Positions 37,147 through 49,200 of a stretch of DNA of 64,000 nucleotides are shown in pieces. Both the position numbers and the translations under genes were made by a program. How positions within the stretch are numbered: the first letter of the stretch is position 1; each line of letters opens with the position of its first letter. Source of the stretch: Flaccisagitta enflata. Lineage: Eukaryota. The stretch covers positions 4,774,001 through 4,838,000 of the forward strand of contig OZ231126.1 in assembly GCA_965153355.1 (NCBI GenBank). The letters are read 5' to 3'. The notes below the pieces were generated by a model. The model saw only the letters and a list, made by a program, of their open reading frames with translations. It searched no databases and had not been told where the DNA came from.

Positions 37147-38973
37147 AATAATCACTTCAACATGTTTACACTTCATTTGCAGAATATATTTGGAGTTGAG
37201 CAGCAATGAAATCCAATGACGGGCCGGGTAAATAACAAGGCCAGATACACGGCTACTCTAGTTGCGTGTGGGTGAGCAGGGTCAGTGATGGAGAGGGACA
37301 CTGGGGCATTAGGGCAGCAGCAGTGAGCTAAAAATGCTCAAAAACGCCTAAAAAACAAAAATTGGGACCGACCAACCAACCAACCGACCGACCAACCGAC
37401 CAACCAACCAACGGATAAAGCGGGATGTAACGTCGTGTAGCACGCGACTATACAGTGTAAGTGATTTTCTATCCAGGTCAAAATAAAATGGACAAAGCGG
37501 GAGGTTAAGACGGGGGAGGGGGAAGAGGAGGTGGAGTGTCAGGTCAGGTCAGGTTTGGAATGAGTGAATAGCATCCATTGTCAATAATGCTGCAGGGTGT
37601 AGGAGGTAAAGCCGTCCCTCTGGAAAGGGTTGTCGGCGATTGTAGCGCGACAAAGCGGGCACGTCCGCTCCTGATCAAACCACTTGGAAACACACTCTTT
37701 GCAGAATATATGTTTGCAGCTGAGTTTGATGGGCTCCTTAAATTCGTCATGGCAAATGGGACAGTTATTTTCCAACATTGTGACTCCGTTAGAATTCAAA
37801 TTGATTGGATTGACACATGATGATTGCATATCAAGGCCGGCCCTTGCTTGATTTTGACCAGTAATCAATGTTGTGACCCCGCTTGAAATTGAATTGATAG
37901 GATTGACACATGATGATTGGCTGTTGAGGCTTGCCTGTGCTTGACTTTGTCTAGTAATCAATGTTGTGACCCCGCTTGAAGTTGAAAAGATAGGATTGAC
38001 GTGTGTTGATTGGCTGTTAAGGCTTGCCTGTGCTCGACTTTTTCTAGTAATCAATTCTTTGATCTTGAAGCAAGCAAGATAAAGCAATAAAGCAAGCAAG
38101 GGAGCAGGGACTATGACCACAACTATGACCACAATTAGGGTATAAATGTTTTTAGTTCCTTTTCTGTTACAAATGACAGACGGAGAACTGCGCCACACGC
38201 CATCCGCGTGACATGTGAGATCCCCGCCCGCAGGACAACAGTATTCTCCCTTCTTTTTTATCATATTTCCTTTTTTACGGTCTCTGCTTTCTTTTGCAAC
38301 ACATGATGATCCCACAGGGCTGGAGTACTTTGTGTCACACTCCCAAAAGCATCCTTTGACATATGGTTTTGCGCCGCATTCAAATATCTCGCAGTGAAGG
38401 TTTTGACTCTGCCAAATGCCTTCGCCAGTGAACATGGATTGTGAATCTGCTTGGCAAACGACTTCTCCTCCAACAATCAAACGATCCCAATTGGCCGCCG
38501 CTCGACATCGAGACCCAAAGGAACTACCATTAGTACAATTCACTAAGCTAAAAGCGAAACAAGTTGAGTTAAGATTATAATGATAATCTGACACTAAAGA
38601 CTTAGGAGGCGGTGGCCAAGGACACTCGATCATACCGCATGTCACATGGCCGTCCCATGAGCCCTTTTCATTACAAAAAAATTGACCTTTGGCATGGTGT
38701 CCTTCCGGTACATTGATGGAGCAAACTGTACCCGAGAATAGGGTGTTTGAGGAACAAGAATAATGAACGGCTACTATGTTAGAAGAATCTCGCAGATTCT
38801 GACACGTATTAGGATATGGTATTGAATGAATTGGCTGGCAAAATTGTCGACAGGCTGTTTCCTGTCTCATTTTCCAATTGAATGCGTTTCCTGGGCCAAA
38901 TTCAACGGCGCATTGGAACTCAACTTGATCTCCATTATTGGCTGGACGGAATCCTGGTTTACAGTCTCTCTTG

Positions 38974-39276
38974 GCGCGTGGTGGCCGAGTGGTTACAGCT
39001 CTTGCCTTCGGTTTCGAGGGTCGCGGGATCGATCCCCGTCTGCGTTCCCCGCTCAGGCGTAGCATTGCTAGCGTAGCGTGTGTTTATGATTGAAATAAAG
39101 CTCCCCTTACGGTTGAAGCAGACAACAATTTGACACGACATTGACAGGAGTCTTACACAAAAAGATCCAATGGCATGGCCCAATGTGGTGGATTGCATGG
39201 CCTCTCTGAAGATCAGATGCTGCATTCATGCTCATCTCGCCCGGGTAGACTCCCCCGGTTAACAACAACAACAACA
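38974..39276 (+). mobile_element. tRNA-derived SINE inserted in a coding exon
   Basis: tRNA-like head with A box TGGCCGAGTGG and B-box-like GGATCGATCCC, (AAC)n tail, and a perfect 13-bp TSD ACAGTCTCTCTTG at 38961-38973 and 39277-39289. Confidence 0.9.
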
Positions 39277-45398: not shown

Positions 45399-46208
45399 CA
45401 GTGGGAACTCGATTTAACGACCCTGAAGGGACGGAAGATTTGTGGTTGTTAAATCCGGGTGTTGTTAAATCGAATTTCTAATTTTCTTCAATCTAGACCA
45501 CCTCTTTAACTAAGCAACTAAGGCTAGGATCAGTGCTTAATTGATTGTTACGGTCATTTTTCAAGCATTTGTGCAAATAGCCAACAGACATACAGACAGA
45601 AAGACAGACAAACAGAGCTATAGACAAACAGAGAGAAAAACAAAGTGACAGATAAAAAAATAAAAAGACAGACAGAAAGAAAATATAGCCTTTTAAAGAC
45701 TTACAATATCATGCGATAGAATAAGTAAAAGATACTATAAATGATTTATGGGAAATGAAATATCACTGATAAAAAAAATGGTTAAAATCTTTTTAATAAA
45801 AAATTACTCTGCTGACAATATCTTAGTCTTTTTGTTCAAACATTTTTGTCGTATTCTTCAGCTGTTATCTTGTTCACTTTTGTATTAAAAGTATTAGTTA
45901 ATATTAGAATATTTTTCATCAATCTTAAAATATTTCTAAGTTTGAATTGAAGGTGAAAATTTGAATAAAAATCTGGTAAAAAAAAATCAATAATCAAGTT
46001 GAAATGTCAAATGTCATTAAATCAGGATAAAAATTGTCAAGGGACCTGGAAATACCGACTTTAAATCAGGTTTGGCTCTTATATCAGGTGTCTTTAAATC
46101 AGATAAAATTAACATTACAAAAGCCTATAAAAATTTAGGACCAAAGAAACTTGGATGTTAAATCCGAAATGTCGTTAAATCAGGTGACGAAAAGGCGGTA
46201 GTCCACTG
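45399..46208. mobile_element. Tc1/mariner-pogo-type MITE inserted at the TA of a splice donor
   Basis: TA|CAGTGG...CCACTG|TA ends with imperfect TIRs and GTTAAATC subterminal motifs at both ends. Removal regenerates the donor GTATGT. Confidence 0.6.
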
Positions 46209-49200
46209 TACCTCCAATTGGAAACATAGTATTTTTGTGTATTGAAGCCTTATGACCACCCATGAGCAGCGTGTATGCTTTGTCTTTGACAGATCCCGGA
46301 AGCCCAAGCGCCAATTGATTGGGCTGCTGCGGGACGGCGTAAGATAGGAAGAAAGGATAAGGCGTTGTCTGCGTCATCAGTGAGTCGACCGTCAACCGTA
46401 ACCACTGAACGTTCAAAGGCATTATCGGGTGGATGATCACGTGAGCATTCTGCTGGTGAGCCGGGAAATGGATTTCATAGCCAGGAGAGGAGGCAAAGGT
46501 CGAGGAGGAGGAGGAGGAGGAGGGAGATGAAGAGACCGACAATGATAAAAGTAGAATAGAGATAACGACTGCCTGCGCGAAACTCTTATTAGTCGCCATT
46601 TTTATGGTTGGGAAATTTATTGCTTTTAGTCATTTATATACAGGCTCGTATTCATTCTGAGATTTACAGGCGATGATTAACAAGAGCAGCTTGATAAATT
46701 GAACAGAAATTTGAGTGCTCAATTGCGCATTTTTCAATTGGGAACTAACAAAATCATCGGGAAACCCGTTTTCAAAATATTTAAGCCAGGATTTCAACTT
46801 CAGGCTTGAGTCAGGTGATTCAGCCGTGGAGCCACTCTGTTTTCTTAGGTGAGTGTGACCTAACCTTTCAATTCAATTCAATTCAAAGAAATGGACATTG
46901 GTTATAAAGATGCGAATAAATTATTAAGGGGGAGGACCGTGCTTAGGCCCTTTACGTCTGCTACAGTACGGATTGATTCTTTTTTGTTCCTTTGCTTACG
47001 ACAGGCCTGCTCTCGTTGGCCCTCTTATTTTAGTTGTTCAGTTAAAATAAATAAGCTTTAAACTACAAATCATTAACAAGAGAAAAAAGTAACAAAAACT
47101 AAAATAAATACTAGATGAGTATTACTTATGGTCTAATTTCAACTTATTTCTAGTCACGGACACGCGACCCTATATCTTGCTGCGTCGGTACGTCGGTCCA
47201 TCAGTTGGTCAGTTGGTGTGTCCAGTGCACTAAGGGCGTTTTTTTAGTAATATGGCGAATAAACAATGAATTTTTTATTTCAATTTTTGATTGATAGATC
47301 TATAGATAGGTCTTATGGAAAGTGATCCACACCAGTTTTGAACAATTCTTTATCTTGTATTGCCCAGAAAGTTACTTTTAGTAATGTTTTCCTCTTTATA
47401 TCATTACTGAGACAGAAAAAAAATCCATTGCCGCCTTTTGCCATGGAAAGACTAGGCTCTATCTGTAGCTCTGGCAATAACGATTCTAGGTTCAAAATCT
47501 GAAGATACACTTTTTATCACTTTAGGAGTTATAGCACATGGAAAATGGTTGCAATATCTGCTCATTGCATTATGGAAATCCATCATTGCATCTTTCATCG
47601 ATTTTTTCCCTTAAAAAACGGGACCAAAATGCAGCTGAGGAACAGCAGAGATAGCTGAGAGGCAGGAGAAGCTGCAGGGGAGTGAGAGTGTTTTGTTTTC
47701 ATTACACTTTCTGCCAATCAAAAGAGGTGGCCTCTATGTACAAAAATGTAAACCATTGCTCTCACAGACTCCAGACAGATGGTACAGACGGGTAAGCATG
47801 CCCTATTTTCCAGTGTGCAGTGTAGGGGGGAAAAAGTTCAGGGACATCCAGGTCAACTTCAAGCCCGACAGCAACTACAAACCCGCCAAATAATCTGTGT
47901 TTTTTACCTTTAACTGAACTTATAATATATGTCTTTATTCCTTAGTAAGCCCACTCCTTACAGAACATAACTAGTTTTATGCTTTTCTCATTCTGTTTTT
48001 CTCTTTCTTTTTTTTCTCTTCCTTTGTTCTCTCCTCCCATTCCTTCTTTTCCATTTTTACTCGATTCTCATCCGTAAATGTCCTAAATGTCCCTTATCCT
48101 TTACCAATGGCCGTCTGTCCCTCTGACTCTCCATCCCTCTGTCAGAAACATTACTGAAATGTAACCGTTTGGGCTGCGGCCCTAATGGAGCTGATGACCT
48201 TTGCTTTCACACAAGTTCTCCACCTTTTTCTCTCTTTCTCTCTCTCTCTCTCTCTCTCTCTCTCTCTCTCTCTCTCTCTCTCTCTCTCTGACCCTAAATT
48301 GGTCACCTTTGAAAGGGTTTAGACATCTTTAAAATATATCATATAGTTGAGATCGTTTAATTTGGTGTGTTTGTAACGACACAGACTTTCGCCCCAGGCT
48401 ACGTTGCTCTTGGTCGATGGAGAGTGGCCAAAAGTCTGCTCCTCATCAACCAAGAGTGACGCAGCCAGGGGCAAAAGTCATTGTTGTTACAGGATAAATC
48501 TATTGATTAGAGAATCTATCCAAGACGATATTGTAAACTCGCATTATTTGTATTCATTGCACTTGAACGAAATTCTTTGTCGGGCTCTCAAAACAAAAAA
48601 TCTATTTGTCTGATGGATAGATCGCTATATACTGAGCTTTCTCATTAAATGAAGTTTTCCCTTTTTTGGTGAGATTCTCTATTCAATAGATTTACCACAT
48701 AGACAAAAACAGTCTCTACTCAAAACAAAACCTCACGTTGCAGTAGTTATCACACACCCCAAATTCGAAGCGGTCAATCGCCTTAACGTCCCCAAGTACC
48801 CTAAGCAGCCCAATAACTACCTCGTTGTCCAAAATCCAAAAATACGCCAAATCATGAATTGAGTAATCGAAGAATGAGTCAGTTTCAAATAAATCTATTC
48901 TACATTAAAAACATCTACAATTACGTGCACAGTCTCATCTCAATCATCAAAGTACAGTGCAACGCTCTGAGATTAACAATATACGTAAACAATTGAGAAA
49001 AATAACTTATTTCAGTTCAAAAAATTGGAATATGAGTAAACGGAATGGGAGAATGAGAGAAAGGACGTTGTTCCATAAACTTGGATGGTTCGGTATTCTT
49101 AAATAAATGATAACATTTCATGATATGGTTAAAAAAAGGACTCTGGGAATTCAAGGCTGGAATACGATGTACGTCTTTAAAGAGTGATCTAGTCATGAGT

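Follow-up and report, generated by a model that had tools for sequence, protein, structure and literature searches.

Single-pass ubiquitin ligases of the PA-TM-RING family, such as RNF43, ZNRF3, GRAIL/RNF128 and RNF13, combine an ectodomain, one transmembrane (TM) helix and a cytosolic RING, which in this family is characteristically a RING-H2. Single-pass RING ligases whose extracellular domain serves in binding, such as RNF43 and ZNRF3, are important regulators. RNFT1 and RNFT2 are RING finger and transmembrane domain-containing E3 ligases of the endoplasmic reticulum (ER) membrane. On the extracellular side, pentraxins are marked by the signature H-x-C-x-[ST]-W-x-[ST] and a conserved disulfide, and SVEP1 (polydom) combines sushi repeats with a pentraxin domain. 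We analysed a stretch of 64,000 nucleotides (nt) from Flaccisagitta enflata (assembly GCA_965153355.1, contig OZ231126.1, positions 4,774,001 to 4,838,000; hereafter the window). An initial annotation had proposed that a gene within it, at positions 37581-46599, encodes a receptor that joins pentraxin, PAN and sushi modules to a cytosolic RING. We conclude, at a probability of about 0.6, that this is a lineage-restricted chimeric gene with an RNFT-derived RING, from an animal that the analysis placed as probably a marine invertebrate allied to crustaceans, and that the window holds an allele of it that was disabled recently.

The coding sequence was assembled from six minus-strand pieces (46599-46212, 44743-44696, 41242-41022, 40453-40213, 39428-39277 and 38960-37581), which together gave 2430 nt, an exact multiple of three, and encoded 809 amino acids (aa) followed by a stop codon, with no internal stops. 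Each of the three introns has a GT donor and an AG acceptor, the latter preceded by a pyrimidine tract. The proposal of four exons joining in phase into a protein of ~809 aa was thus borne out at the level of the DNA. As a reconstructed reading frame, the predicted architecture is real, and runs from a signal peptide through a lectin-like region and complement control protein (CCP) modules to the TM helix and the RING. The longest open reading frame (ORF) of the window (500 aa) includes the last of the six pieces, exon 4b. When the window was searched by tblastn with the joined protein, no second copy of the gene was found in its 64 kb, all matches being the gene's own pieces. The features of the locus, in window positions, are these:

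46212-46599, minus strand: exon 1 (aa 1-129 plus 1 nt), with the start codon, a signal-peptide-like leader (aa 1-~25), a Ser-rich linker, the N-terminal part of the pentraxin-like region and a GT donor
44696-44743, minus strand: exon 2a, 48 nt long and upstream of insertion 1, holding the W-rich strand at the core of the pentraxin-like region; placed by its CAG acceptor after a pyrimidine tract, its in-frame join and a tblastn match back to the window
41243-44695, no strand assigned: insertion 1, 3453 nt, consisting of the element at 41245-44695 plus one TA
41022-41242, minus strand: exon 2b, C-terminal part of the pentraxin-like region, with a GT donor
40213-40453, minus strand: exon 3, candidate PAN/apple-like module with 5 Cys (aa 220-300)
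39277-39428, minus strand: exon 4a, a linker and the first half of CCP-like module 1, with a CAG acceptor
39277-39289, minus strand: the last 13 nt of exon 4a, one copy of the target-site duplication of a short interspersed nuclear element (SINE)
38961-39276, plus strand: insertion 2, consisting of a 13-nt duplication copy (38961-38973) and a 303-nt element (38974-39276)
37581-38960, minus strand: exon 4b, with the remaining CCP-like modules, the TM helix, the tandem-repeat tail, the RING and the stop codon (37581-37583)
38637-38804, minus strand: best CCP/sushi module (aa 403-458), by a local sushi profile
38067-38147, minus strand: single predicted TM helix (aa 622-648) with a basic stretch after it, from Kyte-Doolittle hydropathy
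37778-38055, minus strand: tail repeats, three in-frame units of 93 nt (31 aa, rich in Ser, Asn and Gln), from Tandem Repeats Finder (TRF)
37584-37763, minus strand: RNFT1/2-like segment (aa 750-809), made up of the RING (37650-37763) and a C-terminal tail

The RING was recognised by eight Pfam families above their cut-offs, among them zf-RING_2 (44.4 bits, cut-off 27.3, E 1.9e-11) and zf-C3HC4 (39.4 bits, cut-off 21, E 5.4e-10); these scans, like all Pfam and PDB scans of the gene, were made on the separate exon pieces. All eight metal ligands of a C3HC4 RING are present (Cys 750, 753, 765, 770, 773, 784 and 787, and His 767), confirming the cytosolic C3HC4 RING of the initial annotation. Near-length relatives of exon 4b (n = 77) without exception covered just 9-23%, at the RING end, and the named ones among them, from crustaceans and plants, are RNFT1/2-like or RING-type proteins. 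The best of these relatives (P0004-P0009) are multi-pass membrane proteins without names. One of them, P0007, is identical to the window protein at 47 of 60 residues (78%) in an ungapped alignment that runs from the first RING Cys to a shared last residue. Upstream of the RING, no similarity to the RNFT-like relatives was found.

In a tree of 79 RING ends over 64 columns, the window sequence and an environmental fragment of the same gene (P0081, described below) fell within a group formed with P0004-P0010 (support 92/70). This group lies inside a well-supported clade of 24 rows (95/88) that also holds named crustacean proteins, and the stem leading to the window sequence and the fragment is long (0.35). 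Judged from these alignments, the RING and its tail were probably copied from the lineage's own RNFT-type ligase and then evolved fast. An RNFT-type origin is consistent with the tree but unproven, because the tree is short and its key fork lacks strong support. The RING is not of the PA-TM-RING kind; its sequence matches the C-terminus of RNFT1/2-type proteins instead.

The coding sequence of the window copy is interrupted twice. Insertion 1 has inverted arms of 269 nt (41243-41511 and 44429-44697) that are 88% complementary, with TA at both junctions, and is a TA-targeting DNA transposon with terminal inverted repeats (TIRs), a TA target-site duplication and nested small repeats. None of its four internal ORFs (100-118 aa) belongs to a Pfam family, and its internal repeats of ~170 nt occur again across the window, so that we regard it as non-autonomous and composite. 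The element of insertion 2 lies between two copies of a 13-nt direct repeat, at 38961-38973 and at 39277-39289, that do not differ from each other; it is oriented antisense to the gene and ends in a (CAA)n run. In its head are motifs that we take to resemble the A-box and B-box of RNA polymerase III promoters. Neither ARAGORN nor Rfam found a tRNA or other RNA family in insertion 2 or the rest of the locus; since no tRNA was called there, we term the insertion SINE-like. No second copy of this element was found within the window. The two exonic transposons of the initial annotation were therefore both recovered, one by its TIRs and TA, the other by its direct repeats.

A miniature inverted-repeat transposable element (MITE)-like interspersed repeat of ~130-170 nt, with copies 70-88% alike, was seen at 5864-6034, 27906-28074, 25340-25473, 52658-52799, 55541-55682, 37234-37450 and other positions. 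The repeat also occurs nested within insertion 1 and in the 3' flanking sequence of the RING gene.

At both insertion sites the frame is regained when the element and one duplication copy are removed, and the limits of these excisions were not fitted to the frame, because the target-site duplications define both. Left in place, insertion 1 brings translation from exon 2a to a stop 15 codons inside the element (ORF 44658-44843), and exon 4a runs to a stop directly past the (TGT)n run (ORF 39259-39468). The initial annotation treated the gene as a working receptor; this does not hold as put, since the copy in question could yield the 809-aa product only if both insertions were removed from the RNA. 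Two coding insertions with perfect target-site duplications, in a frame that is otherwise undamaged, suggest a young null allele.

The same observations bear on the possibility that the gene is functional, either because the insertions are private to the assembled haplotype and an intact allele also exists, or because cryptic splicing removes them and leaves a working or slightly altered product. Such a gene would be expected to keep its 2430-nt frame without any other lesion, as it does, and the two perfect target-site duplications mean that the insertions are young. The diverged natural copy P0081 is open from the TM helix to the RING, and insertion 1 is bracketed by 12 combinations of cryptic GT and AG sites that are in frame and free of stops. 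However, every bypass of insertion 1 that we found would remove residues from, or insert them into, the middle of the lectin-like region, and the upstream junction of the SINE reads into the (TGT)n run and then a stop. We consider a functional gene unlikely, and favour the disabled allele.

Only two hydrophobic segments were found in the joined protein, the leader (aa 5-28) and the TM segment (aa ~617-654; Kyte-Doolittle, 19-residue windows, peak 3.26). The signal peptide was judged from hydropathy, and because basic residues come after the TM helix, a type-I topology is predicted; the signal peptide and single TM helix that had been annotated are in agreement with this profile. The tail repeats between the TM helix and the RING have a period of 93 nt, 3.0 copies, 84% matches and 0 indels in TRF.

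The environmental fragment P0081 comes from a 908-bp ENA contig, where it forms a 196-aa ORF, and 182 of its 196 residues (93%) are identical to the window protein. It is open from the last CCP module via the TM helix, tail and RING to the same stop, indicating that the stretch from TM helix through tail to RING has stayed open in what is either a diverged allele or a sister form. Its RING is identical to that of the window protein, and its tail repeats number two, versus three in the window. The copy number of the 31-aa tail repeat differs between gene copies. In a scan of metagenomes with exon 4b peptide patterns, 102 pattern matches were obtained and 0 were confirmed. Four metagenome loci found with a 20-nt exon 2a word (L001-L004) were rejected as chance matches (tblastn E 0.064 or worse); with L001, L002 and L004 the window had a bare 21-nt match in common, and with L003 none at E 1e-3.

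The identity of the ectodomain was evaluated part by part. With the 267-aa ectodomain stretch of exon 4b as query, a phmmer search of 1.84 billion representatives (E up to 0.001) gave seven matches, consisting of the fragment P0081 and six sushi-repeat proteins, the best of which matched at E 2.0e-11 over 8 stretches. Pfam Sushi was present in all six (E from 5.3e-14 down to 0), and a RING family in none. A local sushi profile hidden Markov model (HMM), built from 66 units of the six proteins, gave 23.2 bits at aa 413-458, 9.4 bits at aa 596-611 and three weak matches elsewhere. The ectodomain reached 29.3 bits versus a maximum of 9.2 in the controls, and 0 of 1001 control sequences (1000 shuffles plus the reversed sequence) reached its score. 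A match in the PDB sequences was not obtained for this part of the protein. Because the sushi proteins and the local HMM match while Pfam Sushi is silent, we regard the modules as divergent CCPs, one of them clear and the others degenerate, three to four in all. The Cys-rich modules ending in C..G.W....C that had been noted earlier are present, and are sushi/CCP-like.

The pentraxin domain of the initial annotation was not fully confirmed. Exon 2b resembles Pfam Pentaxin (PF00354) at E 0.24, with 11.5 bits against a cut-off of 25, over profile positions 123-160 of 194. It also resembles zebrafish C-reactive protein in the PDB (4pbo) at E 0.013, over chain residues 127-168. No homologue of exon 2b was found in a word-indexed search at E up to 10. 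Exon 1 taken alone matched no family in Pfam, in the PDB sequences or in a homologue search at E up to 10, and its Atlas search returned matches at 0.80 only, which is noise level. The pentraxin-like region (aa 35-215) contains a single Cys (C161) and its W-rich strand has none; the pentraxin signature and disulfide are absent from it. With modest confidence, and from these alignments, we regard aa 35-215 as pentraxin-like and probably a lectin jelly roll of the ConA type.

The PAN/apple module fared similarly. Exon 3 matched neither Pfam PAN (PF00024) nor any PDB sequence, and what stood was a language-model lead from the Atlas, in which the nearest named clusters were PAN_1 and PAN_4 at 0.92, with 139-151 of 256 features in common. 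We treat the PAN/apple label for exon 3 as a lead only.

Several of these results weigh against a disabled chimeric gene with an RNFT-derived RING. The joins between exons and the silence of the allele are predicted from DNA. Exons 1-3 have no significant match of their own in Pfam, the PDB or the homologue searches, and the pentraxin label comes from one 73-aa piece with the two E values given above. Pfam Sushi (PF00084) gave no match to the ectodomain even at E up to 10. AlphaFold single-sequence models had predicted local distance difference test (pLDDT) scores of 32.3 and 39.2 (exon 3), too low for a comparison of folds. With no more than 64 columns, the RING tree does not give strong support to its key fork (92/70). 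The stop-free GT..AG combinations around insertion 1 belong on the same side, because they might yield a spliced, slightly altered product, although all bypasses found would alter the lectin-like region by loss or gain of residues.

Two further explanations draw on these points. According to one of them, the exons were wrongly joined, and a gene for a secreted lectin-like protein (exons 1-3) has as its neighbour on the same strand a separate gene for the CCP modules, TM helix and RING (exon 4). The junctions are indeed known from the DNA sequence alone, and exons 1-3 offer no significant homologue as an anchor. However, exon 4a has a good CAG acceptor in a phase that matches exon 3, and lacks a start codon and leader of its own, although CCP modules need secretion. 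Exon 3, for its part, reaches its GT donor without an earlier stop, and no other long ORFs lie between exons 3 and 4. We therefore consider a wrong join very improbable.

The other explanation holds that the chimera never worked, an RNFT-type RING end having been placed behind a secreted lectin/CCP fragment by exon shuffling or segmental duplication and having decayed since. Consistent with this, no relative of the same architecture was found among the 1.84 billion representatives, the modules are degenerate, with Pfam Sushi and PAN silent, the window is rich in transposons and microsatellites, and the RING branch is long (0.35). Decay of this kind is difficult to reconcile with a frame of 809 open codons, correct phases at all three introns and a leader and TM helix that fit a type-I topology, nor would it be expected to spare all eight metal ligands of the RING or to leave the RING identical in P0081 while the tail varies. 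The open frame, the phases, the kept ligands and the RING identity with P0081 indicate past purifying selection, and we regard a chimera that never worked as distinctly improbable. A gene that was once under selection and has been disabled recently in the window copy is the explanation we retain.

Under this explanation, the intact form would be an 809-aa type-I protein in which a signal peptide is followed by a pentraxin-like region, then by a PAN/apple-like module and three to four degenerate CCPs, and finally by a TM helix, tail repeats and a RING. The RING and the residues that follow it would have been copied from the C-terminus of an RNFT1/2-type multi-pass ligase of the lineage. The window copy would since have received a TIR transposon inside the pentraxin-like region (exon 2) and a SINE inside the first CCP module (exon 4). 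In the intact form, the ectodomain would bind an extracellular or luminal ligand, either a glycan or a protein, and the cytosolic RING would recruit an E2 and ubiquitinate the protein itself or a bound membrane partner. Ubiquitination may then drive endocytosis or degradation, as with other single-pass RING ligases. That the gene is expressed, that its product binds a ligand and acts as a ligase, and that the window allele has lost its function are predictions of this scheme. The pattern-recognition receptor of the initial annotation, coupling binding to ubiquitination, remains a prediction from domain content.

A more far-reaching proposal, which we offer tentatively and consider doubtful, is that the intact allele represents a new class of surface sensor, in which a lectin-type ectodomain is wired to a RING from an ER quality-control ligase. 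If this were true, binding of a ligand or microbe would lead to ubiquitination and internalisation without an adaptor, and the locus would be polymorphic and of immune type, with the window copy as one null allele. Apart from this proposal, the chimeric gene would be an independent invention of RNF43/ZNRF3-type logic from different parts. The locus is also a compact case in which domain shuffling gave rise to a gene and transposition ended it in one place, with the RING traceable to an RNFT-type source and the route of loss visible in two young transposon insertions. The weight of the case is limited, because it is known from one genome and one environmental fragment, expression is predicted, and two of the ectodomain labels are weak.

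The nearest recognisable neighbour of the gene is a 415-aa ORF on the plus strand (32816-34063). It encodes a BTB/POZ domain (Pfam BTB, E 7.7e-18) after a long low-complexity stretch rich in Gly and Ser, and probably represents an adjacent gene of opposite orientation. The window as a whole is dense in microsatellites and short interspersed repeats. Two near-identical 144-aa frames on the plus strand (51118-51552 and 54006-54440) lie ~2.9 kb apart, each with a (GA)n-type run, which suggests a local tandem duplication. The segment 16001-18000 has a GC content of 0.54, versus about 0.38 elsewhere, and a GC skew of -0.47, and consists of low-complexity, CT-rich DNA in which long "ORFs" of Pro, Ser and Leu arise. 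Two minus-strand frames of 167 and 145 aa (56851-57354 and 58105-58542) matched no Pfam family at E up to 0.01.

No protein with the full architecture was found among the 1.84 billion representatives searched with the exon 4b ectodomain or among the 77 exon 4b relatives. In a full-text literature search, the titles and abstract openings among the matches listed were all of gene lists or reviews, and none of them dealt with the architecture. Within the scope of those representatives and those titles and abstract openings, the statement that no described family carries this ectodomain on a RING was therefore upheld.

Of the pentraxins (CRP, SAP and the neuronal pentraxins), the window protein is reminiscent in that exon 2b aligns in the expected order after the W-rich strand, but the score is 11.5 versus 25 bits, and the region has its single Cys, C161, in place of the signature and disulfide. 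The sushi proteins are the only significant relatives of the ectodomain, and the pentraxin-like region adjoins CCP modules as it does in SVEP1. They differ in that none of the six has a RING, and the modules of the window protein are too divergent for Pfam Sushi.

The likeness to RNFT1 and RNFT2 is confined to the C-terminus, where the last 60 residues are 78% identical to unnamed RNFT-like proteins, with the same final residue, and 58-65% identical to named crustacean RNFT2-like proteins. RNFT proteins are multi-pass and have a long cytosolic N-terminus and no ectodomain modules, whereas the window protein has one TM helix; because the multi-pass core is lacking, it is not an RNFT protein. 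RNFT1 itself appears as a candidate ligase of ER-associated degradation in one report (PMC4971459).

With the PA-TM-RING ligases, the window protein shares a signal peptide, a putative binding ectodomain, a single TM helix and a cytosolic RING, in that order, but its RING is a C3HC4 of the RNFT type and not a RING-H2. A PA domain was not matched by Pfam in any exon at E up to 1 or 10, and no PA-TM-RING sequence relationship was seen among the 77 exon 4b relatives or the seven ectodomain matches. Having an RNFT-type RING and no PA domain, the protein is not a member of that family. By analogy of layout, the PA-TM-RING ligases nevertheless offer the best model for how an intact form of the protein would work.

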